NCBI GenBank assembly: GCA_001786765.1
Contig: MFTH01000015.1
Coordinates: 1,548 to 65,547 of the forward strand
Direction: 5' to 3'
Length of the DNA: 64,000 bases
From: Candidatus Nomurabacteria bacterium RIFCSPHIGHO2_01_FULL_37_25
Lineage (GTDB): Bacteria; Patescibacteriota; Minisyncoccia; Phycocordibacterales; UBA9973
A program made the position numbers and the translations under genes. This document shows positions 1,759 through 45,837 of this stretch, in pieces. The stretch's first letter is position 1, and every line of letters starts with the position of its first letter. The notes under the pieces were generated by a model that saw only the letters and a program-made list of their open reading frames with translations, searched no databases and had not been told where the DNA came from.

Positions 1759-1800
1759 TCTTTCTTTTTTATTTTTTTTATTATACAATCTTAGGATGCA

Positions 1801-1921
1801 ATCCCGTTAGAAGCTGCAGTAGCAATTTTATTCATAAATCATGTTTATAAAAAATATAAAATTTACTAATATAATCAGGCATAGTTGCAATTTACTGACT
1901 GCGACTTGCTTCTAACGGGAT
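1801..1921 (+). repeat. Family A palindromic element (ATCCCGTTAGAAGC...GCTTCTAACGGGAT), copy A1
   Basis: 14-bp terminal inverted repeats plus internal extended stem; flanked by direct repeat ggatgcaatcc (1794-1804 and 1918-1928); right end overlaps the alaS ATG. Confidence 0.8.
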
Positions 1922-3701
1922 GCAATCCAATGAAATAAGATCAAGATTTTTAAAATTTTTTGAAAATCGTGGACATAAAATAATTCCTTCGGCTTCGCTT
2001 GTTCCTCACAATGACCCTTCTGCGCTTTTTAATACGGCTGGAATGCAACCTCTAGTGCCTTATTTAATGGGACAAAAACATCCGACAGGAAAGCGTATTG
2101 CAGACGTGCAGAAATGCGTGCGCACAGGAGATCTGGATGATATTGGCGACAACAGGCATCTTTCTTTTTTTGAAATGATGGGCAACTGGTCTCTTGGAGA
2201 TTATTTTAAGGAAGATGCTATCAAGTGGAGTTACGAATTTTTGACTTCAAAAAAAGAAGGTCTTGGGCTTGATCCAAACCGGCTTTATTTTACAGTTTTT
2301 GAAGGAAATGAAAATGCGCCATATGATGAAGAATCAAAAAAAATTTGGATGAATTTGGGAATTCCAGAACATCGTATTTATGCGCTTCCAGCAGATGACA
2401 ATTGGTGGAGTCCGGGAGACAATGGTCCATCAGGCCCGTGTAGTGAAATGTTTTATGATATGGTAGGTGATGTGGGTGACATAAATCATAAAGAATTTTT
2501 GCTCGCAATTAAAGAAGAGCATGTAGTCGAAATCTGGAATGATGTGTTCATGGAATACGAAAAGAAAAATGGAAAAGTTGTTGGTAAATTAAAACAAAAA
2601 AATGTTGATACTGGCGCTGGACTTGAGAGAATTACAGCGGTGATGCAAGGCAAAAAAACTGCTTATGATACGGATTTATTTAAACCTGTAATGGAAATCA
2701 TAAAAGCCAAATCAAAAAATTACAATGCTAAATCGGCTCGTATAATCGCAGACCATTTGCGCGCTAGTATTTTTATAATTTCCGAAGGCGTATTGCCTTC
2801 TAATAATGGTAGAGAATACATATTGCGTCGTCTATTGCGCAGGGCTGTTAGGCATGCGGATAATATTGGTTTTCCAGAGAATAAACTTGCTCTTAGTTTG
2901 GCAGTGATATTCATAAAACAGTACGCTGAAATTTATCCAGAATTAAAAGAAAAAAAAGATTTAATCACAGGGCAGATTCTAAAGGAAGAAAACAGATTCA
3001 GGGAAACATTGTCTAAAGGTTTAAAAGAATTTGGAAAAGGCACAGATCCGTTTATTTTATTTACGACTTATGGTTTTCCAATAGAACTCACTCTTGAACT
3101 TGCAAAAGAAAAAGGAGTAAAAATTAATATTGAAGATTTTAATAGAAAGATGATAGAACATCAGAAACTTTCTCAAACTGCATCAGCAGGGATGTTTAAG
3201 GGGGGATTAGCGAATCATAATGAAAAGACAATCAAGCTTCACACCGCGCACCATTTGCTTTTGGCCGGACTTCAAAGTGTTGTAGATAAAAATGTAAAAC
3301 AGCGAGGCAGTAATATCACTGAAGAAAGGTTGCGAATAGATTTCACTTGTGACCATAAATTGACCGAGGAAGAAAAGAAAAAGGTGGAAGATTGGGTAAA
3401 TGATAAAATTAAACGGGGGTTAAATGTCGTGCGTAAAGAGATGCCACTTAAAGATGCAGAAAAAATTGGAGCAGAAATGGAATTTGGCGCTAAATACACA
3501 GATATAGTGTCTGTGTATTTTATAGAAGATAAAGCTGGCAATATTGTGTCAAAAGAATTTTGCGGTGGTCCGCATGTCAAGAATACGACAGAATTGTATT
3601 CTTCATTACGAGAAAAATCTGGGGATAATAGCCCATTTAAAATTCAAAAAGAAGAAGCAGTAGCGCAAGGAATTCGACGCATCAAAGCTGTACTTTTGTG
3701 A
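1920..3701 (+). CDS. alaS: alanyl-tRNA synthetase, short form lacking the C-terminal C-Ala domain
   Basis: N-terminal class II core (FNTAGMQP), editing-domain HxxxH (HTAHHLL) and GGPHV; only 593 aa. Confidence 0.85.
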   Translation: MQSNEIRSRFLKFFENRGHKIIPSASLVPHNDPSALFNTAGMQPLVPYLMGQKHPTGKRIADVQKCVRTGDLDDIGDNRHLSFFEMMGNWSLGDYFKEDAIKWSYEFLTSKKEGLGLDPNRLYFTVFEGNENAPYDEESKKIWMNLGIPEHRIYALPADDNWWSPGDNGPSGPCSEMFYDMVGDVGDINHKEFLLAIKEEHVVEIWNDVFMEYEKKNGKVVGKLKQKNVDTGAGLERITAVMQGKKTAYDTDLFKPVMEIIKAKSKNYNAKSARIIADHLRASIFIISEGVLPSNNGREYILRRLLRRAVRHADNIGFPENKLALSLAVIFIKQYAEIYPELKEKKDLITGQILKEENRFRETLSKGLKEFGKGTDPFILFTTYGFPIELTLELAKEKGVKINIEDFNRKMIEHQKLSQTASAGMFKGGLANHNEKTIKLHTAHHLLLAGLQSVVDKNVKQRGSNITEERLRIDFTCDHKLTEEEKKKVEDWVNDKIKRGLNVVRKEMPLKDAEKIGAEMEFGAKYTDIVSVYFIEDKAGNIVSKEFCGGPHVKNTTELYSSLREKSGDNSPFKIQKEEAVAQGIRRIKAVLL

Positions 3702-3713
3702 TACAATTAAGCG

Positions 3714-4913
3714 ATGGGAATTTTTTCGAGAAATAAAGAAAAAAGCAAATTAGTTCTGGTTTTTGATATTGGTTCTTCTTCTGTCGGGGGAACACTTTTT
3801 TATATGGAGAAGTCCAGAATTCCTAAAATAATTATGTCCCTCCGTGAGCCCATAATTTTACAAAAAACTCTTAATATTGATAAGTTTTTATCTTCAACCG
3901 CAAAATCTCTCGATATTGTCGTTAATAAAATTTATAAAGCAGGTATCGGGAAACCCGAAGCGATTTTTTGTGTTCTTTCGTCGCCTTGGCATGTTTCTCA
4001 AATTAGAGTTATCAGACTTGAAAAAAATACACCTTTCATTTTTACTACCAAGCTAGCTGATGATTTAATTCAAAAAGAAATAGCTCTTTTCAAAGAAGAG
4101 TATTTAGCAAAATATTTACACACAGAAAGCCCGGTGAGATTAATTGAATTCAAAAATATCAAAACAATGCTAAATGGCTATGAAACACTAAGTCCCCTAG
4201 AACAAAAAACTAAAGAATTTGAAATGACTATTTTTATTTCAGTTAGCTCAGAGTATATTTTAAAAAAAATAGAAGAAACAATCAGAAAATATTTTCATTT
4301 TAAAAATGTAAAATTCTCTTCTTTTACACTGTCTTCTTTTGCGGTAGCGCGTGATATAGATATTAACCAAAAGAATTTTCTTTTAATTGATATTGGCGGG
4401 GAAGTAACAGATATTTCTATGATAAAAAAGAATGCATTACATGAATCAATTTCTTTTCCATTAGGTCGTAATTTTATAGTACGAAAAGTTGCGTCCGCCT
4501 TAAGTTGTTCGCTTAGTGAAGCGCAATCATACATTTCTCTTTTACAAGACGGACATGCGACTGATTTTATGACAAAAAAACTTAAACCAGTTATAAATAA
4601 ATTCCAATTAGAATGGTTGTATGAGTTCCAGAAATCTTTAGCCAATCTTTCTAGTGATATTTTTATTCCCGCGACTATTTATCTGACTACAGATAAAGAC
4701 TTACTAGATTTTTTTCGTCAAACAATTGAAGCTGAACAGTTTAATCAATATACCTTAACCGAATCAAAATTTAAAGTTATTTTTTTGAGCGCGGAAGTTT
4801 TTCGTAATATGGTGGTATTTGGAAATGGTGTAATTCGTGACCCTAGCCTGATTATTGATTCTATTTATATAAATCGGTTTTTAACTGACTCCGTTTTATC
4901 GGAGCGAGTATAA
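3714..4913 (+). CDS. actin-like ATPase, PilM/FtsA-like (putative)
   Basis: N-terminal LVFDIGSSSVGG phosphate-1-like motif; length about 400 aa; weak call. Confidence 0.35.
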   Translation: MGIFSRNKEKSKLVLVFDIGSSSVGGTLFYMEKSRIPKIIMSLREPIILQKTLNIDKFLSSTAKSLDIVVNKIYKAGIGKPEAIFCVLSSPWHVSQIRVIRLEKNTPFIFTTKLADDLIQKEIALFKEEYLAKYLHTESPVRLIEFKNIKTMLNGYETLSPLEQKTKEFEMTIFISVSSEYILKKIEETIRKYFHFKNVKFSSFTLSSFAVARDIDINQKNFLLIDIGGEVTDISMIKKNALHESISFPLGRNFIVRKVASALSCSLSEAQSYISLLQDGHATDFMTKKLKPVINKFQLEWLYEFQKSLANLSSDIFIPATIYLTTDKDLLDFFRQTIEAEQFNQYTLTESKFKVIFLSAEVFRNMVVFGNGVIRDPSLIIDSIYINRFLTDSVLSERV

Positions 4914-4917
4914 TTTT

Positions 4918-6249
4918 ATGTCAAAATATTTACTGCAAGATATGATAAAAGCAAAAAATGCAAATCAGCAGACGCAAATACCTCAAAAAAAGGCTCGTTT
5001 TGACACTGTATTGTCAATAAAAAATTCTGCAAGAAACAATACAGATAATGTTTCGAGGGGGCAAGTAAATGGAACGCGGTACACACTTTGGTCTGTGGCA
5101 ATTATATCAATAATATTTTTTCTTTTTTCTCTTTCGTATTTATTTTTGAGCGCAGTGGTTACAGTAAATCCTAAAATACAAGAGATAACTTTGAACGAAA
5201 GTTTATCTGCTACCAAAGACTCCAATAAGGATGGTTTATTTTTCAATTTACTAGTAGACAATGTTTCTGGAGAAGAGAAGAGAGATATTCAAGCGAATGA
5301 GCAAAAAGATGTTTCAAATAAAGCCGTAGGCACTGCTGTCATTTTTAATTTTTTTAGTTCTTCTCCTCAAAGACTTTCCATAGACACAAGGCTTGAAGGT
5401 TCAAATGGTAAAATTTATAAAACACAGAAACAGTTAATCGTGCCGGGAATGAAAAATGACACTCCCGGGTCTATAGAAGTGGACATTTATGGAGCTGAAG
5501 CGGGCGAAGAATATAATAGTGGTCCGCTTGATTTTTCCATTTTTGGTTTTAAAGGAAGCCCTAAGTATTCTAAGTTTAAAGTGAGGACAAAGACTGGAAC
5601 AAAAATAACTGGTGGATTTATTGGAAAAGTTAATGTTATATCTGATACTGATAAGGCAGCTATTTTGACCGAATTAAATTCATCTCTTAAAACAAAGCTT
5701 TTAGCTAAAGCTACCAATCAGATTCCACCCGGTTTTATTCTTTTTAAAGATGCTATTTTTTTGAATACTGAAGAACCCATTATTTCTCTTACCCCGGATC
5801 AAAATAATAATTTTACAATAACACTCAAAGGCACTCTTTTCGGTTTTTTGTTGAATGAACAAAAATTGACACAAAAAATCGCGCAAGACAATATTGATAA
5901 ATATGATGGCAGTGACGTGTATATATCAAATATTAGAAATTTAACTTTTTCTATTTCTACCGTGCATGCGCAAGAATGGCAGACGAACCTTTCTGATAAA
6001 AAAAATATTCCTGTTGAAAATTTACAAAAGATAGATTTTAATTTATCTGGTGTTGCAAAAATCGTTTGGAAATTAGATGAGAATCAGCTGATAAATGATT
6101 TCTTGGGAAAATCAAAAAAAGATTTCAACCAAATACTATCAGAATATGACAACATTGATTCTGCTAATTTAAAAATCAGTCCTTTTTGGAAAACTTCTTT
6201 GCCTGATAAAATAAAAAATATAAAAATAATTATAAACTATCCTAAGTAA
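4918..6249 (+). CDS. membrane-anchored hypothetical protein (one N-terminal TM helix)
   Basis: Hydrophobic segment YTLWSVAIISIIFFLFSLSYLFL after a polar N-terminus; no recognisable catalytic motif. Confidence 0.4.
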   Translation: MSKYLLQDMIKAKNANQQTQIPQKKARFDTVLSIKNSARNNTDNVSRGQVNGTRYTLWSVAIISIIFFLFSLSYLFLSAVVTVNPKIQEITLNESLSATKDSNKDGLFFNLLVDNVSGEEKRDIQANEQKDVSNKAVGTAVIFNFFSSSPQRLSIDTRLEGSNGKIYKTQKQLIVPGMKNDTPGSIEVDIYGAEAGEEYNSGPLDFSIFGFKGSPKYSKFKVRTKTGTKITGGFIGKVNVISDTDKAAILTELNSSLKTKLLAKATNQIPPGFILFKDAIFLNTEEPIISLTPDQNNNFTITLKGTLFGFLLNEQKLTQKIAQDNIDKYDGSDVYISNIRNLTFSISTVHAQEWQTNLSDKKNIPVENLQKIDFNLSGVAKIVWKLDENQLINDFLGKSKKDFNQILSEYDNIDSANLKISPFWKTSLPDKIKNIKIIINYPK

Positions 6250-6251
6250 TC

Positions 6252-6388
6252 ATGAATTACGAAACTCGTCGAAGGCATGTCTTTTTTAGGGGGTTTCGAG
6301 GCTGTCGAGCCGAGAACTTCAGGATTTTTCAAGCTTCGAAAAATCCGTACCCTAGAAAAAGACATGCCTAGAAAGAGTTTCGTAATTC
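6252..6388 (+). repeat. Family B MITE-like element, copy B1 (full length)
   Basis: Terminal inverted repeats gaattacgaaactc/gagtttcgtaattc; internal core ggggtttcgaggctgtcgagccga shared with four other loci. Confidence 0.75.
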
Positions 6389-6487
6389 AAAGTAAGTAAA
6401 ATATATCTCTTCTTGCGTTTGTGCTTTGTTTATATTGTGATATGATATAAATATGAAAAAGAGGAAAATAAAAGGTAAAATATTTTC

Positions 6488-6754
6488 ATGAGCGACCACA
6501 AGAATGAAAAATTGTTAATTGTTAAGGGAGCTATAACCGAAGCTTTACCCTCTACTTTATTTAAAGTGAAAATACTTACTAATAATGCTCCGCATAACAA
6601 TGCAAACTCCGAAGATAAAGAAAAAGAGCAGGAAATTTTAGCTTACCTTTCAGGGAAAATGCGTATGCATAGAATTAAAGTTTTAATTGGGGATTTAGTC
6701 GAAATTGTGCTTGATCCTTATGGAGGAAAGGGGAGGATAGTTAAAAGGTTGTAA
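6488..6754 (+). CDS. infA: translation initiation factor IF-1 with an internal ~18-aa insertion
   Basis: S1-like IF-1 signature ...LSGKMRMHRIKVLIGDLVEIVLDPYGGKGRIV; sits upstream of rpmJ-rpsM as in alpha operons. Confidence 0.8.
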   Translation: MSDHKNEKLLIVKGAITEALPSTLFKVKILTNNAPHNNANSEDKEKEQEILAYLSGKMRMHRIKVLIGDLVEIVLDPYGGKGRIVKRL

Positions 6755-6844
6755 TTTTTTTAAGAATAGTGTATTATGATGGAACGGTTTTAAAAAGAGT
6801 AATAGTATCCAAAAAATAAGGGTTTTTTCCTTGTTTTTTATTTT

Positions 6845-6955
6845 ATGAAAATTAAATCAGCGATAAAAAAAATTTGCGATAATTGTAAAGTTATCAGACG
6901 TCAAAGGCACTTAAGAGTGACTTGTTCTAATCCTAAGCATAAGCAAAAACAATAA
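6845..6955 (+). CDS. rpmJ: 50S ribosomal protein L36
   Basis: Not in the ORF track (37 aa); translation [36 protein letters not shown] matches the L36 zinc-ribbon pattern. Confidence 0.85.
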
Positions 6956-6966
6956 TTTTATTTATT

Positions 6967-7347
6967 ATGAGAATACTTGGAATCACAATACCAAATGAAA
7001 AGAGGCTTGAAATCGGTCTGACTTGTCTTTATGGTATTGGTATTTCAAAAGCTCGTAAAATTTTAGATCAGTCTGGTATTGATCGTGGTCGTCGCGCAAA
7101 AGATTTAACTTTAGATGAAGAGAATAAAATTCGTATTGTAATTGAAGGAATTCTAATTGAAGGAAATTTAAAGAGAGAAATCGGAGCAAATATAAAGAGA
7201 ATAAAAGATATTAAAAGCTACCGAGGTATTCGTCATATAAAAAGATTGCCGGTTCGGGGACAAAGAACGAAAACAAATTCTAGAACTGTTCGGGGCAATG
7301 TCCGAAGGACAATGGCGTCAGGTAAAAGAAAAGAAAGCAAGACGTAA
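6967..7347 (+). CDS. rpsM: 30S ribosomal protein S13
   Basis: MRILGITIPNEKRLEIGLTCLYGIG, typical S13 N-terminus, and operon position. Confidence 0.9.
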   Translation: MRILGITIPNEKRLEIGLTCLYGIGISKARKILDQSGIDRGRRAKDLTLDEENKIRIVIEGILIEGNLKREIGANIKRIKDIKSYRGIRHIKRLPVRGQRTKTNSRTVRGNVRRTMASGKRKESKT

Positions 7348-7407
7348 AATATAAAAATCTTAGAGTATCAAGCAAATAGAAAAAGTTAAAGTCTAAAGCT
7401 TAAACAA

Positions 7408-7839
7408 ATGTCAAAAACTAAAACAACAGAAGAAATAAAAGTAGAAACTGAAACAGAAGCCAAAAAGGCTTCACCAAAAACACCTAAAAAGAAAGTAATT
7501 TCTGGCACTCTATCTATTGATGCTACTTTTAATAACACTAAAGTTCTTTTAGCGGATAAGACGGGTAATACATTGTTTTGGTCGAGCGCGGGAAGTTTAG
7601 GTTTTAGGGGAGCAAAAAAAGGAACTCCTTTCGCAGCTTCTAAAGTAGGTGATATTATTGGAGGTAAAGCCGCAATGCTTGGAATCAAAGATGTGAATGT
7701 AGTGGTTATGGGAGTTGGGTCTGGTCGTGAGCCTGCAATTAGAGCGTTTATGGCTCATGGAATGGAAATTACTTCTGTTGCTGACGCGACACCAGTTCCT
7801 CATAATGGACCGAAGGCTAAAAAACCTAGAAGGGTATAG
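7408..7839 (+). CDS. rpsK: 30S ribosomal protein S11
   Basis: Conserved S11 core (GTLSIDATFNNT..., GFRGAKKGTPFAA). Confidence 0.9.
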   Translation: MSKTKTTEEIKVETETEAKKASPKTPKKKVISGTLSIDATFNNTKVLLADKTGNTLFWSSAGSLGFRGAKKGTPFAASKVGDIIGGKAAMLGIKDVNVVVMGVGSGREPAIRAFMAHGMEITSVADATPVPHNGPKAKKPRRV

Positions 7840-7874
7840 AAGAATTATAAAATTATTAGAGTATAATTTTAAAA

Positions 7875-8480
7875 ATGTTAAGTAAACCAAAATTCAAAAT
7901 TTGCAGAAGGTTAGGCCCCGGTGTTTATGACAAGTGTCAAACTGCTAAATTTTCGGCTACCACTGGCAAGATGGCTTTGGCCGGCGCGCGTCGTCCTAAA
8001 GCCCCGACTGAATACGGCACACAGCTTATTGAAAAACAAAAAATAAGATTTTCATACGGAATTACTGAACGTCAACTCTCTAATTATGTTAAAAAGGCTT
8101 CTAGCGCCAAAGGCGCTGGCACCGCAGAAAAACTCTATGAAAGATTAGAATTTCGTCTTGATAATGCAATTTACAGAATGGGTCTCGGAGCAAGTCGTCG
8201 CGCTACCAGACAAATGGTTTCCCATGGGCATTTCATTGTTAATGATAAAAGGGTTACTATTCCGTCATATGAATTAAAATTTGGAGACATTATAAAAATT
8301 CGCGAAGGTTCTAAAGGAAAGAAAATTTTTAATAAAATAGCCGAAAATTTAAAAGATTACAATTCTCCAGCTTGGGTAAGTTTTGATATTAATAGCATGG
8401 AGGGGAAAATTTTAGATAAACCGAAAAATATGGAAGGTTTTATTGATCTTAATGCTGTGCTTGAATTTTATAGTCGTTAA
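7875..8480 (+). CDS. rpsD: 30S ribosomal protein S4
   Basis: S4 N-terminus (KFKICRRLG) and S4 domain; operon position. Confidence 0.9.
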   Translation: MLSKPKFKICRRLGPGVYDKCQTAKFSATTGKMALAGARRPKAPTEYGTQLIEKQKIRFSYGITERQLSNYVKKASSAKGAGTAEKLYERLEFRLDNAIYRMGLGASRRATRQMVSHGHFIVNDKRVTIPSYELKFGDIIKIREGSKGKKIFNKIAENLKDYNSPAWVSFDINSMEGKILDKPKNMEGFIDLNAVLEFYSR

Positions 8481-8538
8481 ATTATTCCACTAGAGGTGGA
8501 CAAGTATTATTAAAATTAAAAGTAACTTTATATAAATT

Positions 8539-9522: not shown

Positions 9523-9531
9523 AAGAATAGT

Positions 9532-9885
9532 ATGAGACATAGCAATAACAAAAGAAAATTTGGTAGAGTTAAAAAAGTCAGGAATGCCTTGATTAATTCC
9601 TTGGCGCTTAATCTAATAGCGCGCGGAAAAATAAAGACGACTCTAGCTAAAGCTAAAGAAATGAGACCTTTTGTTGAAAAACTTGTGACTAGCGCCAAGC
9701 GTGGCGATATAGCTACTCGTCGACTTGTAATTTCATCACTTTCAAATCGAAGAAGCGAAGTCAAAAAACTTTTTGAAGTTATCGCGCCAAAGTACATAGA
9801 TAGAAAAGGAGGATACACAAGAATTTTAAAGTTGGGTCCGAGAATTTCAGACGGAGCTCAAATGGCAATTATAGAATTTATATGA
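9532..9885 (+). CDS. rplQ: 50S ribosomal protein L17
   Basis: MRHSNNKRKFGR... typical L17; follows rpoA. Confidence 0.9.
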   Translation: MRHSNNKRKFGRVKKVRNALINSLALNLIARGKIKTTLAKAKEMRPFVEKLVTSAKRGDIATRRLVISSLSNRRSEVKKLFEVIAPKYIDRKGGYTRILKLGPRISDGAQMAIIEFI

Positions 9886-9886
9886 T

Positions 9887-9998
9887 CCCGAACGAAATCG
9901 CGGACGCATAAAATAAGTAAAATTATGAAACTGATTAAATATTTTATAAATAATAATAAAAAGGACAACGAAGCGTAAGCGTACGCGTCCTATTTCGT
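9887..9998. repeat. imperfect inverted repeat in the rplQ-rplM spacer (tcccgaacgaaat...atttcgtacggga)
   Basis: Arms near 9887-9908 and 9977-9998 are near-complementary. Confidence 0.4.
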
Positions 9999-10003
9999 AC
10001 GGG

Positions 10004-10372
10004 ATGAAAAACACAAAAGAAATAATTAATATAAAAATAATAGACGCGCAAGGAAGAACTTTAGGCAGAGTGGCTTCAGAAATTGCGATGTCTTTAATGG
10101 GCAAGACCAAAGCTTCTTTTGAGCGTAATAAATATTCTGGCATACCCGTAAAAGTTATCAACGCGACGAAACTTCGTATTACTGCAAAAAAGTTAGAATC
10201 CATTTATCACACTAGATATTCAGGGATTCCGGGAGGATTGCGTATTACAAAAGGCACGGAAACCGTCCTCACAAAAGGATTCAAAGAATTAATCAGACTC
10301 GCAACATATCAAATGCTTCCGGCAAATAAATTGCGAAGAAAAATGATGAAAAATTTAACAATAACAGATTAA
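10004..10372 (+). CDS. rplM: 50S ribosomal protein L13
   Basis: L13 N-terminal pattern IDAQGRTLGRVASEIA. Confidence 0.9.
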   Translation: MKNTKEIINIKIIDAQGRTLGRVASEIAMSLMGKTKASFERNKYSGIPVKVINATKLRITAKKLESIYHTRYSGIPGGLRITKGTETVLTKGFKELIRLATYQMLPANKLRRKMMKNLTITD

Positions 10373-10376
10373 GTAT

Positions 10377-10850
10377 ATGCCAGAAGAATTAATTGAAAAA
10401 TCAAAACCTGCCCGCAATGCTTCGCATAGCGATACAGGCGGGGATAAATATATTGAAGCCGTAGGAAGACGAAAAACTTCGACTGCCAGAGTGCGTATTA
10501 CAAAATCCGCAAAAGCCAGTTTTTTAGTAAATGGTATTGATAGTAAAGAATATTTCAAAACAGAAGGAGAACGTCGTTTAATTTTAGATCCAATAATAAA
10601 GGGATTGAAGGGGGAACAAGGAAAGGCGAGTTTAAAATGGAATGTGGAAGTGCATGTTTCGGGTGGGGGAGTTCATTCTCAATCTGAAGCAATACGACAC
10701 GGACTTGCTCGCGCTCTTTCCGTATTTGACCCAGAGACTCGCGGAAATTTAAAAGATTTAGGATACTTAAAACGCGATCCGAGAGCCAAAGAACGTAGAA
10801 AATTCGGTCTTAAAAAAGCTCGCAAAGCTCCTCAGTGGAGCAAACGCTAA
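10377..10850 (+). CDS. rpsI: 30S ribosomal protein S9 with an N-terminal extension that carries a GC-rich repeat
   Basis: S9 core starts at ...GRRKTSTARVRI and ends with the basic C-terminus ...KKARKAPQWSKR; the first ~25 aa are extra. Confidence 0.85.
   Translation: MPEELIEKSKPARNASHSDTGGDKYIEAVGRRKTSTARVRITKSAKASFLVNGIDSKEYFKTEGERRLILDPIIKGLKGEQGKASLKWNVEVHVSGGGVHSQSEAIRHGLARALSVFDPETRGNLKDLGYLKRDPRAKERRKFGLKKARKAPQWSKR
10404..10443 (+). repeat. Family C GC-rich palindromic insert (aaacctgcccgcaatgcttcgcatagcgatacaggcgggg), in frame in rpsI
   Basis: Near-identical sequence at 40835-40874 inside scpB; encodes KPARNASHSDTGG versus KPAHNASHSDAGG. Confidence 0.8.
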
Positions 10851-11018
10851 CTGCTTAGCGTTTGCTGAGGTTCGCAATGAAAGCGAAATTGCCGATGTGA
10901 GCGTAGCGAACAGGCAATAACGGGACAACCGTTGATTTATTGCTATGTGTTAAGTGTCAAAATAATTAATAAAATATTAGCCCTTTCCGGAGGGGATTTT
11001 TTGTGCTAAAATAGACGC

Positions 11019-11597: not shown

Positions 11598-11603
11598 AAG
11601 TTG

Positions 11604-12158: not shown

Positions 12159-12302
12159 ACCTATATATTATAATATATACTGCTTTTTAGCAAATATTTC
12201 GTGATTACTAAATACTTGCTAAAAATAAATTATTACTATATAATGGCTTTAATTAATTATTAACCCCAATTATCGGATTGGGATTTAAAATATAAAAATA
12301 TT

Positions 12303-14204: not shown

Positions 14205-14223
14205 TAATTGTCTACATATAAAC

Positions 14224-14284
14224 TAGAAAGCACCAGAGAGCAGTGCTTTCTAGTGCTTGGTCATAATCCGGAGACCCGGATTAT
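14224..14284 (+). terminator. two consecutive perfect hairpins after dnaK (ctagaaagcac..gtgctttctag; ataatccgg..ccggattat)
   Basis: 11-bp and 9-bp perfect stems; no strong T-tract; may terminate dnaK and/or mark the island boundary. Confidence 0.45.
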
Positions 14285-14646: not shown

Positions 14647-14649
14647 AAT

Positions 14650-25452: not shown

Positions 25453-26100
25453 TTATTGTCTATTCTTCAGAGCATTTTTGAGAGTGTCATTGTCGGAGTA
25501 TTCGAGTTCGGTGCCAGTGGAAAGCCCTTTACCGAGAGAGGAAATTTTGATGCCAGATTTTTCTGCCGTATCTTTAAGTTGTTCTCGAATATAAGAATCA
25601 GTATGGTCGCCTTGAGGGCTTAAGGAAAAAGCTAAAATTATTTCTCTCAGTTTATTTGGGTTTTCATCTTTTGATATTTTTTGCTTCAATTCTTCAATCC
25701 TCACTCTATTTTTAGTATTTTTCTCAACAATAGGCACGAGTCCGCCTAAAATAAAATATTTACCATTATAAATTCTACTTTTTTTTACACTCTCTAAATC
25801 AGAGTCTTTTTCAACAATCATCAGAATGGAAGAGTCCATATTTTTATCAGAGCAGATTTCACATATCTTATTCCCGACGCTTGCGGTCGGGACTCCGACC
25901 CTATTAGGGCGTCGGAGAAAAAATCTAAAACATTCTTTACATTGCGATATATCTTTTTTTAAATCTAAAATTAAGCTAGATAAATTTTCTGTATAACCAT
26001 TAGTTCGAGACATTAAAAAATAAACAAAACGTCTTGCTTGCCTCTCTCCAATTCCCGGAAATTCTTTAAAAATTTCAGCTAATTTGTCTATAATATCCAT
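25453..26100 (-). CDS. recR: recombination protein RecR, with a repeat inserted between the two CxxC halves of its zinc finger
   Basis: HhH N-terminus, CKECF...(21 aa)...CEICSD, Toprim region; the start codon abuts element A2. Confidence 0.85.
   Translation of the reverse strand: MDIIDKLAEIFKEFPGIGERQARRFVYFLMSRTNGYTENLSSLILDLKKDISQCKECFRFFLRRPNRVGVPTASVGNKICEICSDKNMDSSILMIVEKDSDLESVKKSRIYNGKYFILGGLVPIVEKNTKNRVRIEELKQKISKDENPNKLREIILAFSLSPQGDHTDSYIREQLKDTAEKSGIKISSLGKGLSTGTELEYSDNDTLKNALKNRQ
25871..25917 (-). repeat. Family C3 GC-rich palindrome (tcccgacgcttgcggtcgggactccgaccctattagggcgtcggag), in frame in recR
   Basis: Self-complementary ends tcccgacgc/gcgtcggag; encodes RRPNRVGVPTASVGNK inside the RecR zinc finger. 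Confidence 0.75.
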
Positions 26101-26222
26101 CCCGTTAGAAGCAGATCGCGATCAATTCACGTATCTGATATTTTATATTATTAACTTTTCCAATATTACTTAATTTCATATTTTGTTTATATTTAAATTG
26201 CGATCGCGGCTTCTAACGGGAT
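26099..26222 (+). repeat. Family A palindromic element, copy A2
   Basis: atcccgttagaagc...gcttctaacgggat; the extended stem gcagatcgcgatca/ttgcgatcgcggc covaries with other copies; the left end overlaps the recR start codon (CAT on the plus strand). Confidence 0.8.
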
Positions 26223-27716: not shown

Positions 27717-27835
27717 AAAAACTAAAACATAACTTTTGAAGGGGTTTCGAGACTGACGAGCACTGAACTTCAAGATTTTTCAAGACTAATTTTTATTTGA
27801 AAAATCCGTACCGAAAAAAGTTCATGTTTTAGTTT
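27717..27835 (+). repeat. Family B MITE-like element, copy B2 (divergent ends)
   Basis: Core ggggtttcgagactgacgagc...aaaaatccgtacc shared with B1; own inverted ends ctaaaacataactttt/aaaagttcatgttttag. Confidence 0.65.
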
Positions 27836-27861
27836 TTATATTTTTATGTTAAAATCTAACT

Positions 27862-39885: not shown

Positions 39886-39931
39886 ATGTTTCAGTATATC
39901 TTTTTTTACAAAAAATGCTACTATTATAAGG

Positions 39932-40672
39932 ATGGAAAAAGAAATTTATCAAATAAAGACAACTGGCTTTGAAGGTCCATTCGGTCTACTTTTAGAGTTA
40001 ATAGAGAAGCGAAAGCTTTTTATCAACGATGTATCACTTGCGAGTGTTACAGAAGATTACTTGAATTATATGCAAAAATTGGGCGGACTTAATAGCGCAG
40101 AAATCTCCTCTTTTGTTCTAGTGGCGTCAACATTGATTCTAATCAAATCAAAATCTCTTTTGCCAAATTTAAATCTAACAACAGAAGAAGAAGGAGATAT
40201 CAAAAATCTAGAAGAAAGATTGCGTTTGTATGAGCTATTTATAAAATTAAGCAGAAACATAAAAAATAATTTTGCTAAAAAAATAATTTTCGCGCCGCTT
40301 GAAAGAAAAAATGATGTTTTGGTATTTTTGCCAGATGACCAAATTACCAAAGAAAGTATGATGATTTTTGCTCGTAATGTCTTAGGAACAATACCTAAAA
40401 AAGTATTCTTGCCGAAAGTAGAAGTGCGAAAAGTCATCAGTATTGAAGAGATGATTGAAAAATTAACGCAAAGAATAAAAAATTCGCTAAAAATGAATTT
40501 CAAAGACCTAAATGGGGAAATAGCCACCCGTGAAGAAAAAATAGTTATGATTGTGGGATTTCTTGCTATGCTAGAGCTTGTTCGGCAAGGAATTATTCAT
40601 GCAGCGCAAGATAGCGGTTTTTCCGACATTATTCTAGAGAAAACGGAAACTAAAGAAAATAATAATTTATGA
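39932..40672 (+). CDS. scpA: segregation and condensation protein A
   Basis: FEGPFGLLLELIEKRKLFINDVSL (ScpA N-terminus); start moved from the track's 39833 to the Met at 39932, because the longer ORF overlaps pepN. Confidence 0.8.
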   Translation: MEKEIYQIKTTGFEGPFGLLLELIEKRKLFINDVSLASVTEDYLNYMQKLGGLNSAEISSFVLVASTLILIKSKSLLPNLNLTTEEEGDIKNLEERLRLYELFIKLSRNIKNNFAKKIIFAPLERKNDVLVFLPDDQITKESMMIFARNVLGTIPKKVFLPKVEVRKVISIEEMIEKLTQRIKNSLKMNFKDLNGEIATREEKIVMIVGFLAMLELVRQGIIHAAQDSGFSDIILEKTETKENNNL

Positions 40673-41259
40673 TCACCTTAGAATCAAAAATTGAAGCAAT
40701 ACTTTTTTGGAAAGGGGAGCCAATTTCACGAAAGAAACTCGTAGAGATTTTAAAAGTTACTCCAAATGAAATAAACGAGGCAATAGAGAAATTAAAAATA
40801 AACTTGCAAAGTAGGGGAATAGTCTTATTAGAAAAACCCGCCCACAATGCTTCGCATAGCGATGCAGGCGGGGAAAACGAAATCACGCTCGGCACGGCGC
40901 CTGAGCTCTCTAAACTTATTGAGGATTTACAGAAAGAAGAATTAAATAAAGAACTTTCTAAAGCCAGCCTAGAAACACTCTCAATAATTCTTTATAAAAA
41001 TGGAGCAAATAGAGCTGAAATTGACTATATCAGAGGAGTCAACTCTAGTTTTACTTTGCGCGCTTTATCTATCAGGGGTCTCGTAGAGAAAAATCTAGAT
41101 TCTAAAGATAGTAGAAGGTATATTTATAAACCGAGTTTTGAATTAATGTCTTATATGGGCATAAAATCTATGGAAGAATTACCTGACTATGGTGAAGTTA
41201 ACAGCTCAATAAATACTGCAGTAAAAAATTTAGAAGAGGAGGATAATGGGAAGGAATAA
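40669..41259 (+). CDS. scpB: segregation and condensation protein B, carrying a GC-rich insert
   Basis: Tandem winged-helix pattern; ATGA overlap with scpA. Confidence 0.75.
   Translation: MITLESKIEAILFWKGEPISRKKLVEILKVTPNEINEAIEKLKINLQSRGIVLLEKPAHNASHSDAGGENEITLGTAPELSKLIEDLQKEELNKELSKASLETLSIILYKNGANRAEIDYIRGVNSSFTLRALSIRGLVEKNLDSKDSRRYIYKPSFELMSYMGIKSMEELPDYGEVNSSINTAVKNLEEEDNGKE
40835..40909 (+). repeat. Family C GC-rich palindromic insert, in frame in scpB (aaacccgcccacaatgcttcgcatagcgatgcaggcgggg + gc-rich tail)
   Basis: 37/40 identical to the rpsI copy; followed by a second GC-rich stretch cgctcggcacggcgcctgagctc. Confidence 0.8.
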
Positions 41260-41404
41260 TAATAAGAAGAATAATACGGAAGAAAAAATAGAATAAAAAA
41301 AATGTTTAACCAAATACTTACAACTCTGCTATCGCAGAAATATAAGTAAAAATGAAATAAGTTATGAATAATAATAAACAAGATAATTATCAGCAAGAAG
41401 TGTA

Positions 41405-42215
<811 letters not shown>

Positions 42216-42217
<2 letters not shown>

Positions 42218-42335
42218 CCCGTTAGAGACAGGTCGCAGTCTTCGCTTTCTGTGAATTATTTTTAATATAGTTGATTGTCATAGTAATATTGATTTATTTA
42301 TTATATCCCATTGCGACCGCGGTCTCTAACGGGAT
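42216..42335 (+). repeat. Family A palindromic element, copy A3
   Basis: atcccgttagagac...gtctctaacgggat (a/g covariation keeps pairing); the left end overlaps the start codon of 41405-42217. Confidence 0.8.
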
Positions 42336-42356
42336 TCACTTAAAAACAATAACACA

Positions 42357-43454
42357 TTGCTGTATTTTAATCAAAAAAATGTTATATTTACTCATATGTA
42401 TTTCAATTTGATTAAAATATTTTTGCCAACGACAGTGGCTTTTTTCTTAGGTCTTTCCTTCACGCCGATAGCCACCCATTTTTTTTACAAATACAAAATG
42501 TGGAAAAAATATTCCAGAAGCGCAATAACAACCACTTCTTCCGACTTTTCAAAAATCCATAATGAAAAAGCTGAATTAAAAACTCCTCGGATAGGCGGAA
42601 TAATAATCTGGATTTCTGTTCTTGCAACTGTTATTATTTTTTATTTTATATCAATTTTATTCCCATCAACGGGAAGTTCGGAAATAAATTTTCTAAGTAG
42701 AAACCAGACTTTTATACCACTCTTTACCCTTATCGCAGGGTCTTTGATTGGATTATTGGACGATCTAATTCAAATCTACGGAACAGGAAAATTTGCTCGC
42801 GATGATAAATCTTGGCGTAAATGGAAAGCTTTTTTAGTAGGGTTTCTTTCTCTTCTTATTGGTATTTGGTTTTTTTATAAATTAGGAATGACTTCTATTC
42901 ATATTCCATTTATGGGAGAAATGTATTTGGGTATTTTAATTATTCCATTTTTTATAATAGTCGCCTTGGCGACTTTTTCTGGGGGAGTGATAGATGGAAT
43001 AGACGGACTCTCTGGAGGAGTTTTAGCTTCAATTTTCGCGGCTTACTCCACGATAGCGTATGCCAACAGTCAAATAGACCTTGCCGCATTTTCTGCTGTT
43101 ATAACTGGAGCAATACTGGCATTTCTTTGGTTTAATATTCCACCAGCCAGATTCTATATGGGTGAAACAGGTATTATGGGACTTACGATAACTTTAGCGA
43201 CACTAGCCTTTTTAACTAACACAGTTTTGATTCTTCCGATTGTTGCATTACCCCTTGTTGTTACATCTCTTTCTGTTATTTTACAACTAGCTTCAAAAAA
43301 ATTGCGAGGGGGTAAAAAAATATTCAAACTAACGCCGATTCATCACCATTTTGAAGCGATTGGATGGTCATCGTATAAAGTAACCATGCGTTTCTGGATT
43401 CTTTCAGTCGTATTTGCCATAATTGGTATAATTTTAGCAATTATCAGCAGGTAA
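42357..43454 (+). CDS. mraY: phospho-N-acetylmuramoyl-pentapeptide transferase
   Basis: Polytopic; IHHHFE motif and the D-rich cytoplasmic loops. Confidence 0.9.
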   Translation: MLYFNQKNVIFTHMYFNLIKIFLPTTVAFFLGLSFTPIATHFFYKYKMWKKYSRSAITTTSSDFSKIHNEKAELKTPRIGGIIIWISVLATVIIFYFISILFPSTGSSEINFLSRNQTFIPLFTLIAGSLIGLLDDLIQIYGTGKFARDDKSWRKWKAFLVGFLSLLIGIWFFYKLGMTSIHIPFMGEMYLGILIIPFFIIVALATFSGGVIDGIDGLSGGVLASIFAAYSTIAYANSQIDLAAFSAVITGAILAFLWFNIPPARFYMGETGIMGLTITLATLAFLTNTVLILPIVALPLVVTSLSVILQLASKKLRGGKKIFKLTPIHHHFEAIGWSSYKVTMRFWILSVVFAIIGIILAIISR

Positions 43455-43478
43455 ATATATGCTAAAAAATAAATAATA

Positions 43479-44585
43479 ATGAAAGAGAAAAAGATAGATA
43501 GATTTTTTTTAATAATCCTCGGCCTCTTGCTCGTTATTGGAATTTCTATGTTTGTTTCCGCGTCATTGGGAGTCTTAATAAGAAATGAAAAACTTTTTTA
43601 TTCAGTGCTTTTTAGCCAGTTAGTTCTCGGTCTTGGTTTGGGGCTTCTTGGCATGTATTTTTGTTTAAAAATAAATTATAAATTTTGGCGCAGATATTCT
43701 TTTCTGATTTTTTTAGGTTCGATATTATTAACAGCATCCGTCTTTATTCCTTATTTAGGATGGACTCATGGGGGAGCGCAGAGATGGATAAAATTGGGGA
43801 ATTTTTCTTTTCAGCCCGTTGAGATTTTAAAATTTGGATTTATAATTTATTTTGCGGCTTGGTTATCTTGGGTTAAAAATAAAGTGCAAGATTTTAGGTT
43901 TGGAATTTTACCATTTGGTATAATGCTTGCGATTATCGCTACAATTTTACTCAAACAACCTGATATTAAAAGTTTCATTTTAATTACAGTAACTGGAACC
44001 TCAATGCTTTTTATTTCTGGAGTCCCTGTAAAATATATTTTAGGAGTGGGAATGGGGGCTTTACTTGTTTTAGGATCTCTTGTATTTTTTACACCGTATC
44101 TTCAAGAACGAGTAAAAACTTTTATTAATCCGGAAGCTGACCCCCGAGGGTCCTCTTATCAAATTCAACAATCCCTTATTGCCTTAGGGTCAGGCGGAAT
44201 AATTGGAAGAGGTTTTGGTCAAAGTATTCAAAAATTCGGTTATCTTCCAGAACCACAAGGAGATTCTATTTTCGCTGTTATAGGTGAGGAATTTGGTTTT
44301 ATTGGAACAAGTGTTACAATATTTCTTTTTTTGCTTTTTGCTTTGCGAGGATTTCGTATTGCCAATAATTCTCCAAATCTTTTTAGTAGACTTTTGGTCT
44401 CTGGAATTGTTATACTGATAACAGCGCAGTCATTTATGCACATTGCCTCCATTACTGGAGTATTTCCATTGACGGGGGTACCGCTTCCTTTTATGAGTCA
44501 TGGAGGCACTTCGCTTATGATATATCTTATAGCAACAGGTATTATTCTTAATGTATCAAAATTTCAAAAGCATGAATCCCGTTAG
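43479..44585 (+). CDS. ftsW: SEDS-family peptidoglycan polymerase (FtsW/RodA)
   Basis: 10 TM; conserved ...PEPQGDSIFAVIGEEFGF...; the stop codon TAG lies inside element A4. Confidence 0.8.
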   Translation: MKEKKIDRFFLIILGLLLVIGISMFVSASLGVLIRNEKLFYSVLFSQLVLGLGLGLLGMYFCLKINYKFWRRYSFLIFLGSILLTASVFIPYLGWTHGGAQRWIKLGNFSFQPVEILKFGFIIYFAAWLSWVKNKVQDFRFGILPFGIMLAIIATILLKQPDIKSFILITVTGTSMLFISGVPVKYILGVGMGALLVLGSLVFFTPYLQERVKTFINPEADPRGSSYQIQQSLIALGSGGIIGRGFGQSIQKFGYLPEPQGDSIFAVIGEEFGFIGTSVTIFLFLLFALRGFRIANNSPNLFSRLLVSGIVILITAQSFMHIASITGVFPLTGVPLPFMSHGGTSLMIYLIATGIILNVSKFQKHESR

Positions 44586-44696
44586 AAGTCGTGATCAGGA
44601 TTGAAATATAAACAAAATATGAAATCAAATATTGAAAAAATTAATAACATAAAATATCAGATACGCGAGTTGATCGCGACCTGCTTCTAACGGGAT
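44576..44696 (+). repeat. Family A palindromic element, copy A4
   Basis: atcccgttagaagtcgtgatcagg...gatcgcgacctgcttctaacgggat; the left end supplies the ftsW stop, the right end overlaps the murG ATG. Confidence 0.8.
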
Positions 44697-45837
44697 GAAA
44701 ATAGTTTTTACAGGTGGCGGAACAGGCGGACATTTTTATCCCATTATTGCCATCGCTCAAAAAGTAAATCAAATAATAGATCGTGAACATATACTAGAAG
44801 GAAAGCTCTTTTATATTTCTGATAGCCCTTATGATAGGGAAATGCTTTTTGAAAATGGACTTTTGTATGAAGAAATTAATACTGGTAAGATGCGCACTCA
44901 TTTTTCCTTTAAAAGTTTTTTCCTGAATTTTTTTGATATTTTTAAAGTTTTTTTTGGTGTTATAAACGCATTTTACAAAGTTTTTTCTATTTATCCAGAT
45001 GTTGTTTTTGGTAAAGGCGGATATGCTTCATTCCCAACAATTTTTGCCGCTATAGTTTTACGTATTCCGGTTGTGATTCATGAATCAGATTCTGCGCCCG
45101 GACGGGTAAATAAGTGGGCTGGGTATTTTGCTAAAAAAATAGCTGTTTCTTTTATAGAAACAGCTGATTATTTTCCCAAAAAAAATGTAGCTTGGACGGG
45201 TCAACCCATAAGAATTGAAATAGAACATCCCGCAAATCAAAAGGAAGCGCTTGATTATTTCAAACTGGAGAAAGATGTGCCGGTCATACTTATTTTAGGA
45301 GGCTCTCAAGGCGCAGAACTTATTAATAATACTATCTTAGACGCATTGCCAAAACTTGTTAAAGATTATCAAATTATCCACCAAACTGGTGTTAAAAATT
45401 TTAAAATGGTCACAAATATGGCAAAAATTGCATTAACCGACAATCAACATGAATTGAGATATCTATCTATGGCTTTTTTAAATCCTTTAGCTATGAAAAT
45501 GGCTGCGGGTGTGGCAACTATAGTTATTTCTAGAGCTGGCTCAATGTTATTTGAAATAGCGTCTTGGGGTGTGCCATCTATTTTAATACCTATAACAAAT
45601 ACAAATATGGATCATCAAAAAAAGAATGCTTTTAATTATGCTCGAGCGGGAGCTTGTAGTGTTATTGAAGAGATGAATATGACTGCTAATATTTTAACTT
45701 CAGAAATTAAAAGAATAACAGAGAATAAAGTAATATATGAAACTATGGCTCAAAATGCTAAATCTTTTGCTAAAGGAGATGCTGCGATGAAAATTGCGCG
45801 CGTGTTAGTGAACATAGCTTTAAGTCACGAGAAATAA
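44695..45837 (+). CDS. murG: UDP-GlcNAc:lipid I GlcNAc transferase MurG
   Basis: FTGGGTGGH N-terminus, GT-B C-terminal domain. Confidence 0.85.
   Translation: MKIVFTGGGTGGHFYPIIAIAQKVNQIIDREHILEGKLFYISDSPYDREMLFENGLLYEEINTGKMRTHFSFKSFFLNFFDIFKVFFGVINAFYKVFSIYPDVVFGKGGYASFPTIFAAIVLRIPVVIHESDSAPGRVNKWAGYFAKKIAVSFIETADYFPKKNVAWTGQPIRIEIEHPANQKEALDYFKLEKDVPVILILGGSQGAELINNTILDALPKLVKDYQIIHQTGVKNFKMVTNMAKIALTDNQHELRYLSMAFLNPLAMKMAAGVATIVISRAGSMLFEIASWGVPSILIPITNTNMDHQKKNAFNYARAGACSVIEEMNMTANILTSEIKRITENKVIYETMAQNAKSFAKGDAAMKIARVLVNIALSHEK

Follow-up and report, generated by a model that had tools for sequence, protein, structure and literature searches.

Start-codon palindromes of a Candidatus Nomurabacteria genome are probably gene-less derivatives of a mini element encoding a GIY-YIG nuclease

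A 64,000-nucleotide stretch of the genome of Candidatus Nomurabacteria bacterium RIFCSPHIGHO2_01_FULL_37_25 (contig MFTH01000015.1, positions 1,548 to 65,547; hereafter the window) contains a set of palindromic elements of about 120 bp, designated Family A, whose ends coincide with the start codons of genes. The analysis presented here leads us to conclude that these palindromes are probably gene-less derivatives of a mini element that encodes a GIY-YIG nuclease and inserts into start codons. Insertion occurs at ATG-R-A start codons (R, purine), in the orientation of the gene and with a 2-bp (GR) duplication. Some genomes contain a copy where close relatives have none, and elements of different subfamilies have struck one and the same start in independent events.

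Results

Palindromes abutting start codons in the window

An earlier note on this DNA had described five copies, A1 to A5, each running into the ATG of a gene. All five were confirmed at their positions, and in every case the abutting ATG begins an open reading frame (ORF) supported by Pfam or NCBIfam; the N-terminal residues read from the sequence suit the gene families, as in the case of MurG (MKIVFTGGGTGGH). The count itself was incomplete, in that a sixth copy (9885-10005), detected by a scan for ATCCC...GGGAT pairs with complementary arms, had been missed. All six copies adjoin a start codon, the terminal ...CGGGAT being followed by the G that makes up the ATG. The copies, the mini-ORFs that they contain and the genes that they open are as follows:

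1796..1800, + strand: relic of the original alaS start (ATGCA), duplicated at 1920-1924
1801..1921, + strand: copy A1, 121 bp, terminal inverted repeat 14/14, same orientation as alaS
1841..1915, + strand: A1 mini-ORF, 24 codons (MFIKNIKFTNIIRHSCNLLTATCF), terminated by the TAA within the 3' repeat, with 4 nt left to the alaS ATG (1920)
1920..3701, + strand: alaS, opened by the ATG at the A1 end
9885..10005, + strand: sixth copy (rplM copy), 121 bp, variant repeats ATCCCGAACGAAAT/ATTTCGTACGGGAT, 13/14
25453..26100, - strand: recR, opened by the ATG at the A2 end
26099..26222, - strand: copy A2, 124 bp, same orientation as recR, rebuilt ATG at 26100-26098
26105..26179, - strand: A2 mini-ORF, 24 codons (MKLSNIGKVNNIKYQIRELIAICF), ending at the TAA of the repeat
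31753..31819, + strand: copy A5, short degenerate variant of 67 bp, arms 12/14, rebuilt aspS ATG at 31818
31818..33173, + strand: non-discriminating aspS, opened by the ATG at the A5 end
41405..42217, - strand: VanY/M15 peptidase gene, opened by the ATG at the A3 end
42216..42335, - strand: copy A3, 120 bp, in the orientation of the VanY/M15 peptidase gene, rebuilt ATG at 42217-42215, relic GTGA at 42339-42336
42222..42281, - strand: A3 mini-ORF, 19 codons (MTINYIKNNSQKAKTATCL), ending at the TAA of the repeat
44576..44696, + strand: copy A4, 121 bp, in the orientation of murG, relic ATGA at 44572-44575, rebuilt ATG at 44695
44619..44690, + strand: A4 mini-ORF, 23 codons (MKSNIEKINNIKYQIRELIATCF), in frame in 8/8 distinct subfamily copies at six loci
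44695..45837, + strand: murG, opened by the ATG at the A4 end

The 13-nt terminus ATCCCGTTAGAAG has 11 matches in the window with at most two mismatches, as against 1.45 expected, a number reached in none of 100 shuffled sequences. The 14-bp terminal inverted repeats ascribed to all copies are perfect in A1, A2 and A3 (14/14); one pair is lost in A4 and in the rplM copy (13/14) and two in the short A5 (12/14). With lengths of 67-124 bp, the window copies have coding capacity for mini-ORFs of 19-24 codons and for no enzyme.

The individual junctions show varying degrees of decay. An 11-bp direct repeat around A1 had been proposed as a target-site duplication; the sequence GGATGCAATCC is indeed found at 1794-1804 and 1918-1928, but the real duplication is just ATGCA, the rest being a chance or repeat-derived extension. 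The relic upstream of A2 has decayed to ATAG (26226-26223), and dnaB ends 4 nt upstream. The rplM copy sits between rplQ and rplM and rebuilds the rplM ATG at 10004; its relic ATG (9882-9884) overlaps the rplQ stop, and its 3' repeat lacks the TAA. In A3, the repeat sequence AGAGAC is the nearest in the window to the AGAGAT of the autonomous element (see below). Copy A4 donates the stop codon of ftsW, as previously described, the TAG at 44583-44585 lying inside its 5' repeat. As a separate observation on this locus, MurG is 99% identical between the window and locus L234, yet the adjoining 3' ends of ftsW differ markedly, the protein terminating in ...KFQKHESR in the window (44540-44585) and in ...RFQRN in L234 (60-127); the element boundary at ftsW-murG may coincide with a recombination breakpoint.

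Distribution of the termini among CPR lineages

One genome per species was scanned with the pattern ATCCCGTTAGA-N80-110-TCTAACGGGAT, which leaves the G of the ATG outside. The same termini were found in at least 118 contigs from many phyla-level lineages of the candidate phyla radiation (CPR). These contigs come from Nomura-, Kaiser-, Lloyd-, Wolfe-, Kerfeld-, Yanofsky-, Taylor- and Zambryskibacteria, from Harrison-, Campbell-, Jorgensen-, Lipton-, Vogel-, Moran- and Levyibacteria, as well as from numerous bins with the label Saccharibacteria; a few belong to non-CPR bins (Sedimentisphaerales, Omnitrophota, WOR-3). The window itself belongs to the Parcubacteria and is Nomurabacteria-like. Viral contigs matched neither the short pattern nor that of the 280-bp element described below. 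Among the census matches listed, one of the ends creates an ATG in 129 of 132 copies, and an ORF of at least 30 codons follows 117 of 130, the remainder being mostly upstream partners of tandem or nested pairs. The association with start codons put forward in the earlier note was borne out; the spread across many CPR lineages, like the probable derivation from a nuclease-encoding element and the presence or absence of copies among close relatives, goes beyond what the note anticipated. Although the interior is unconserved family-wide and follows the GC content of the genome, some interiors can be aligned; of such pairs, 27 agree in their orientation with respect to the gene and 2 are opposed, showing that the element is directional.

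Target site and duplication

Flanking sequences were compiled for 117 copies oriented by the downstream gene. The 5' flank reads A-T-G-R (A in 99, T in 100 and G in 95 of the 117), and ATG-R-A is found on the 3' side, where position +4 is an A in 107 copies. The R is identical on both sides in 83 copies and cross-mismatched in only 1-2; since it varies in concert on the two flanks, it must stem from a true duplication rather than from a fixed element end. If the ends are taken as the symmetric ATCCCG...CGGGAT, the duplication amounts to 2 bp (GR) in 90 of the 117 copies and to 3 bp in 6, and has decayed in the remainder. The terminal AT of the element and the duplicated G therefore rebuild the start codon at the 3' end, leaving a relic ATGR on the 5' side, where the first A of the element completes a left-hand ATGRA. 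The suggestion that the element targets GGATG/CATCC at gene starts is correct as far as gene starts are concerned, but the target is ATG-R-A and the duplication 2-3 bp.

The sequence ATGRA occurs 436 times in the window; 26 of these occurrences (about 6%) are at starts and 24 in non-coding DNA. In the 866 kb of census loci, 188 are at starts and 616 in non-coding DNA. It could be imagined that the element has only a loose preference for ATGRA or GR, and that its apparent specificity arises afterwards, in-gene hits being lethal, intergenic copies being quickly deleted and copies at starts being the ones that cannot be lost imprecisely. The high frequency of ATGRA, of which starts make up so small a share, speaks for this explanation, as do three copies at ATAAA-like sites that are not starts (L016, L059, L065) and the fact that a census of intact termini favours retained copies. 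However, a preference for ATGRA combined with purging of coding hits predicts that 23-50% of the copies should be at starts, as opposed to the 93% observed (p ~2e-62). Copies that must be young to judge from filled and empty sites, one of them missing from a 99%-identical strain, are likewise located at starts, and so are 14 of the 15 copies present in 80 loci fetched via MurG, a sampling independent of the element. Loose preference is, in our judgement, possible but rather unlikely. Either a feature specific to true starts is recognised or copies elsewhere are lost much faster.

Filled and empty sites

The start of murG offers a direct comparison of filled and empty sites. Among 80 metagenomic ftsW-murG relatives, the site is empty (...ATGAAAATAG) in 72 and filled in 8, one of the strains with an empty site having a MurG protein 99% identical to that of the window. 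The 8 filled sites carry elements of at least four distinct subfamilies, one of them 69 bp long, and a relic ATGA is found upstream of each. Tandem or nested copies at a single ATG (L061, L087, L108 and L074) indicate that a rebuilt ATG can be hit repeatedly. All the traits by which MITEs (miniature inverted-repeat transposable elements) are recognised are thus found in Family A, namely terminal inverted repeats, a duplication with filled and empty sites, small non-coding copies and an autonomous partner. The copies apparently represent non-autonomous, MITE-like derivatives of the nuclease-encoding element described in the following section.

A full-length element encoding a GIY-YIG nuclease

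The full-length element measures 280 or 281 bp (both termini exact) and consists of 13-14 bp repeats, ATCCCGTTAGAGAT...ATCTCTAACGGGAT, flanking a single ORF for an 84-aa GIY-YIG protein. At seven distinct loci, all in other genomes, a GIY-YIG ORF of 83-92 aa lies between the same repeats at the start of a same-strand gene. The arrangement begins with a relic ATGR (degenerate at 3 of the 7 loci), followed by ATCCCGTTAGAGAT (GTCCCG... at two), about 5 nt and the ATG of the nuclease; the ORF ends with ...TATCTCTAA, which is followed by CGGG and by the ATG of the host gene. The TAA stop of the nuclease is thereby located inside the 3' repeat, 4 nt ahead of the rebuilt host ATG, the junction reading exactly TAA-CGGG-ATG in 6 of the 7 loci and TAA-ACGGG-ATG in L209. 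The 92-aa isoforms are those of the 281-bp form, where the relic host ATG shares the frame of the ORF; they start at that ATG and continue through the repeat as MNPVRD or MDPVRD.

Several observations connect the short copies with the full-length form. Some of the former are visible deletion derivatives, for example one whose product reads MFY...NLKISYF before the stop. In each of L014 and L073, a short copy lies a few kb or less from an element, or the end of one, that bears a GIY-YIG ORF; in L014 a lone terminus coincides with the end of a GIY-YIG ORF, and in L073 an 84-aa GIY-YIG ORF fills a 280-bp element with variant repeats. The short copies of L186 are on a contig of 598,563 bp, the same size as the longest contig recorded for nuclease P0033, suggesting that the two share one genome. 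The L073 element (3857-4166, from RAAC4_OD1_1) is also peculiar in its own right, having the repeats ACCCCGTTAGAG...CTCTAACGGGGT, forming no ATG and having a second, truncated 5' end behind it; either this copy has decayed or it stands for a sub-lineage whose target is different.

The protein matches PF01541 above the cut-off (E=1.3e-17) and consists of the catalytic domain only. A protein search retrieved 373 close homologues of 83-92 aa, the best 120 of which are 80-100% identical to the query. Residues Y4-T5-Y6, Y17-T18-G19, R25/R27, H31, E51 and E63, corresponding to the GIY/YIG/R/H/E signature, are invariant, and at 80-90% identity the family is under strong purifying selection. The closest solved sequence is that of UPF0213 protein BH0048 (1ZG2, E=4.5e-10). 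An AlphaFold model (pLDDT 87.7) likewise has 1ZG2 as best match, followed by Slx1-Slx4 and HIGLE, all ahead of I-TevI and UvrC. Slx1 and HIGLE are branch-specific nucleases, Slx1 cutting branched DNA and Holliday junctions.

Two alternative roles for this ORF were considered. Family A could comprise ordinary MITEs moved by a DDE, HUH or recombinase enzyme encoded elsewhere, with the GIY-YIG ORF as a passenger or an unrelated selfish gene. We know of no transposon that relies on a GIY-YIG protein alone, the protein is limited to its catalytic domain, and the window harbors no nuclease gene, all of which would be in keeping with such a scheme. Set against this, the ORF fills the 280-bp element and has its stop within the 3' repeat, and the nuclease family is subject to strong purifying selection. 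Moreover, the 118 census loci contain no other transposase and, if the GIY-YIG forms and the tandem or nested copies are set aside, no longer element with the same termini, while neither the TA duplication of IS630 nor the duplication-free insertion of IS200/IS605 fits the junctions. A conventional transposase is therefore an unlikely source of mobility.

The second alternative is classical homing, whereby the empty allele is cut, the element is copied by recombination, and its presence at multiple loci reflects rare ectopic events. GIY-YIG enzymes are classic homing endonucleases, and the ORF has a weak match to the NCBIfam model of group I intron endonucleases (TIGR01453, score 21.7 as against a cut-off of 56). 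CPR bacteria also exchange DNA, and GIY-YIG genes are listed among those transferred (PMC12455944). Homing nevertheless fails to account for the hundreds of unrelated genes targeted, which have only ATGRA in common, and for the precise 2-bp duplication, the inverted repeats and the gene-less derivatives, all traits of transposons; the protein, in addition, lacks the DNA-binding domain that gives long recognition sites. We consider homing very unlikely.

Other small GIY-YIG genes were noticed in different surroundings (L012, 2150-2520, and L004, 4380-4760, both on the - strand). One of the two is flanked by copies of a perfect 18-bp palindrome, CTCCGCCAGCTGGCGGAG, and the other directly follows a tRNA-like 5' half, GGGCCCATAGCTCATCCGGTAGA...; a link with repeats may be a more general trait of small GIY-YIG genes.

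Secondary structure of the elements

Positions 1-14 of the repeats are paired in 93-100% of the 117 copies. Positions 12-14 covary, being 93-96% Watson-Crick with A-T, G-C, C-G and T-A pairs all represented. The subfamily to which the window copies belong (15 copies from several genomes) is predicted to form a 14-bp outer stem and, beyond a conserved 4-nt bulge (AYCT) in the 3' arm, an inner stem of 8 bp. In the 15-copy alignment, 6 pairs show double compensatory changes, 4 of them in the inner stem. A comparable two-tiered fold, with an outer stem and the inner stem GGAAGCGCCUAAAUC/GAUUAGGCGCUUCC, is found in the autonomous element. The earlier note's claim of selection on the hairpin is supported by the covariation at positions 12-14 and by the compensatory changes; its description of a variable but self-complementary inner stem holds for the window subfamily (8 pairs, 4 of them double-changed) but not family-wide.

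These features could also be taken to mean that the palindromes are regulatory RNA hairpins selected by the host in 5' leaders, and not mobile DNA at all. The strength of the fold (z-score ~ -5.6 to -7.5), the covariation and the constant position at starts agree with this idea. It is contradicted by the filled and empty sites of close relatives, by the duplications, the tandem and nested copies and the ORF-bearing form, by the unconserved interior that tracks genome GC, and by the lack of any Rfam match at E<=1 for A4 or the autonomous element (Rfam 15; no match at gathering score over the window either). A purely regulatory origin is hardly credible. Neither tRNA nor tmRNA genes were found in the window.

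Expression of the interrupted genes

Insertion at a start codon raises the question of how the gene downstream continues to be translated. All four full-length Family A copies of the window hold a mini-ORF of 19-24 codons, and in the A2/A4 subfamily the same mini-ORF is present in 8/8 distinct copies, internal length changes being multiples of 3 nt. ORFs ending at the TAA of the repeat are about three times as frequent as in shuffled sequences (56 of 117 copies; shuffle mean 17.4, maximum 27). Two classes of ORF that start at the relic host ATG are likewise in excess, namely those extending to this TAA (22/117; mean 4.7, maximum 11) and those extending to a TGA that overlaps ATGA (8/117; mean 2.0, maximum 6), and element lengths leaving a remainder of 2 when divided by 3 are over-represented. 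The excess of ORFs ending at the repeat TAA suggests a termination-reinitiation process that would keep the host gene translated. The alternative offered in the earlier note, that the end of the element acts as a translation-initiation context, is therefore upheld in spirit by the TAA positioned 4 nt before the ATG.

Other ways of expressing the gene were considered and rejected. An N-terminal extension translated from the entire element is at odds with the depletion of in-frame fusions to the host protein (8 of 117 copies; shuffle mean 18.3, maximum 30), none of which begins at the relic ATG. A Shine-Dalgarno (SD) sequence within the element, or one moved into proximity by the hairpin, was dismissed since an SD-like motif precedes the rebuilt ATG in only 6 of the 117 elements; in the census loci, the frequency of such motifs ahead of genes does not exceed that at random positions. 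About half of Parcubacteria are reported to lack the anti-SD motif (PMC9297842). A sigma-70-like site directed toward the gene was found inside A3 only (none in A1, A2 or A4), and the counts of such sites are not above those of shuffled sequences. No intrinsic terminators were found at the window elements.

Sequences upstream of the genes are suggestive of leaderless transcription. In the census loci (L001-L118, 866 kb), the 3' end of -10-like hexamers (TAnnnT) peaks 5-8 nt before the ATG, as seen in 126 of 596 long-ORF genes, which suggests that many genes in these CPR lineages could be leaderless. An example is provided by alaS in the window (1770-1798), where the -10-like TACAAT lies 6 nt upstream of the relic ATG (TACAAT-N6-ATG), an arrangement that would fit a leaderless-type promoter. 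Targeted genes show a weak enrichment for promoters of this type (31% versus 21%, p=0.04).

Other repeats in the window

A second palindromic family is represented at 6249-6389, 27717-27837 and 57852-57936. Its arms, TGAATTACGAAAC.../...GTTTCGTAATTCA, are 34 nt long and 88% complementary at 6253-6389, and its copies have a core in common (GGGGGTTTCGAGRCTGWCGAGC...GATTTTTCAAG). The copy at 6249 starts directly after ...ATCATGA, and the family has no Rfam match at gathering score. Two 88-nt repeats, 85% alike (965-1052 and 1454-1541), lie inside the mnmA ORF (469..1758; 429 aa). Their inverted arms of 20-21 nt, AATGAAAATTCAAAGAATTTT/AAAATTCTTTGAATTTTCATT, are 90-100% complementary and enclose a GC-rich core; to judge from sequence, they look like palindromic insertions tolerated in coding DNA. 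A 45-nt repeat with a GC-rich stem, AAAACCYGCCCRCAATGCTTCGCATAGCGATRCAGGCGGGGAWAA (91% identity), is found at 10403-10447 and 40833-40877. The first copy falls in the 5' end of the annotated S9 ORF, ahead of the Pfam match, and the true rpsI start may thus be located downstream. Lastly, a 101-nt direct repeat (30042-30142 and 30455-30555; 78% identity) is part of an ORF-poor stretch with several hairpins (~29700-30600), which may be a non-coding RNA locus.

Discussion

A model for insertion and hand-back of translation

If Family A elements are indeed derived from the GIY-YIG element, a simple scheme could account for their architecture. The repeats and the subterminal stem would fold into a hairpin or cruciform whose base falls exactly at the element boundaries. 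The Slx1-like nuclease would cut this base, as well as the target ATGRA, with a short stagger. GIY-YIG enzymes commonly leave short 3' staggers. A non-palindromic 2-nt GR overhang would explain the 2-bp duplication, the matched R and insertion in one direction only, and the presence of ATGRA at both junctions of the filled site means that precise excision could occur as well. Having no general promoter or ribosome binding site of its own, the element would use the start-codon region of its host, in lineages that are SD-poor and often of the leaderless type. The entry point of ribosomes would be the captured start or else an AT-rich ATG inside the loop; translation of the nuclease ORF or of the mini-ORF would melt the 3' arm, and ribosomes would halt at the UAA of the 3' repeat and restart 4 nt further on, at the rebuilt host AUG. 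We propose that such a hand-back renders insertion nearly harmless even in the essential genes alaS, rplM, murG and aspS.

In its full form, the hypothesis holds that the element represents a new class of prokaryotic DNA transposon, and the smallest autonomous one (280 bp), whose sole protein, an 84-residue Slx1-like GIY-YIG nuclease, acts on the element's own hairpin or cruciform; that it homes to start codons, possibly leaderless and SD-free ones; that it returns ribosomes to the host gene through a stop-N4-start junction; and that its derivatives are spread across the CPR. We would give this complete version about an even chance of being right.

A number of points weigh against deriving Family A from the GIY-YIG element. 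To our knowledge, no DNA transposon that relies solely on a GIY-YIG nuclease has been described before, and the present protein has no separate DNA-binding domain. The 64-kb window contains no GIY-YIG gene, and its six copies must depend on a trans-acting copy assumed to exist elsewhere in the genome. ATGRA is so abundant in the window that it is not the sole determinant of the target. The inner stem is missing in about half of the copies family-wide, the interior having a z-score of -1.07, and the covariation of the repeats could be explained by shared protein recognition instead of pairing. A coupled ORF is lacking in about 40% of the short copies, as is the TAA in the rplM copy, so coupling is not the only route of host gene expression. 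Finally, the census demanded both 11-nt termini intact, TAA included, and is consequently biased toward young or constrained copies.

Relationship to known systems

The Correia elements (NEMIS) of Neisseria, RUP of pneumococci and ERIC of enterobacteria resemble Family A in being multi-copy sequences, some 100-150 bp long, that are bounded by terminal inverted repeats and make a short target duplication, in forming a hairpin when co-transcribed with neighbouring genes and in being non-autonomous derivatives of a coding element. They differ in that their partner is a DDE-type insertion sequence (IS), or none is known, and in that they insert anywhere between genes with a TA-like duplication; the present family has a partner encoding only a GIY-YIG protein, inserts in one orientation at ATG-R-A, rebuilds the ATG and provides a stop-N4-start junction. 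A MITE of the IS630/Tc1-mariner type was rejected, the flanks being ATGR/GRA and the empty sites (ATGAAAATAG) showing no TA duplication.

IS200/IS605 elements with their palindrome-associated derivatives (PATE), and the REP/REPIN-RAYT systems, are similarly very small, make use of DNA hairpins and short targets and have abundant gene-less palindromic derivatives. Unlike the present element, they depend on HUH tyrosine transposases and subterminal hairpins, and insert between genes, without duplication, 3' of a tetra- or pentanucleotide. An IS200/IS605 PATE was discarded in view of the perfect 14-bp terminal repeats and the concerted R on both sides (83 copies, with 1-2 mismatched), and a REP/REPIN-RAYT system in view of the 11-nt termini common to many CPR lineages, the start-codon sites and an associated ORF of the GIY-YIG rather than the Y1 type, although a RAYT gene may lie elsewhere in the genome. 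Integron attC sites were likewise set aside, both strands reading 5'-GTTAGAAG ... CTTCTAAC-3', the reverse of the RYYYAAC...GTTRRRY order, and no cassette array being present.

I-TevI and the Seg proteins of T4 are products of selfish elements that, like this one, encode a GIY-YIG nuclease as their sole product. However, they possess a long DNA-binding domain, recognise one site of ~30-40 bp and spread by same-locus recombination, with no inverted repeats, duplication or gene-less derivatives. An enzyme of the I-TevI type was excluded by the catalytic-only 84-aa protein, the TIGR01453 score below cut-off and the many unrelated targets. The nearest relatives in sequence and fold are UPF0213/YhbQ and Slx1/HIGLE; the branched DNA cut by Slx1 is of a sort that could be extruded from a palindrome. 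These are host repair or orphan proteins and, as far as we know, have not been described as mobile or flanked by inverted repeats.

Rickettsia palindromic elements offer a parallel from other reduced genomes, being palindromes of ~100-150 bp tolerated in essential genes. They are, however, inserted in frame and translated within the host protein, whereas the present element precedes the protein; membership in this group was ruled out by the scarcity of in-frame fusions (8, against a shuffle mean of 18.3). In operons controlled by termination-reinitiation, a stop 4 nt before or overlapping the next AUG, and upstream translation that unmasks a start buried in a stem, closely resemble the junction described here. 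The difference is that the junction is brought in by the terminal repeat of a mobile element instead of having evolved within the operon.

A search of the full-text literature, in which the terminal sequence was included, returned no description of the family; most papers in subscription journals fall outside its coverage and a prior description is possible. The family apparently lies outside the known kinds, with a role of the nuclease in mobility suggested by the architecture of the element.

Implications

If the proposed scheme is correct, stand-alone GIY-YIG nucleases would join the short list of enzymes of DNA transposition, and the element would set a new lower size limit for autonomous elements. 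We know of no other mobile element whose target is the start codon itself. An insertion module that is specific for 5 nt and for orientation, and that rebuilds its own target, might also be developed into a genetic tool. On a more immediate level, the elements mark recent strain-level differences, and they can mislead gene callers, as illustrated by the 92- versus 84-aa isoforms, the relic ATGs and the ftsW stop donated by A4. They precede essential genes in a large share of CPR genomes and, should the scheme hold, would provide a handle on how translation starts in these bacteria, which largely do without Shine-Dalgarno pairing and are not yet genetically tractable.

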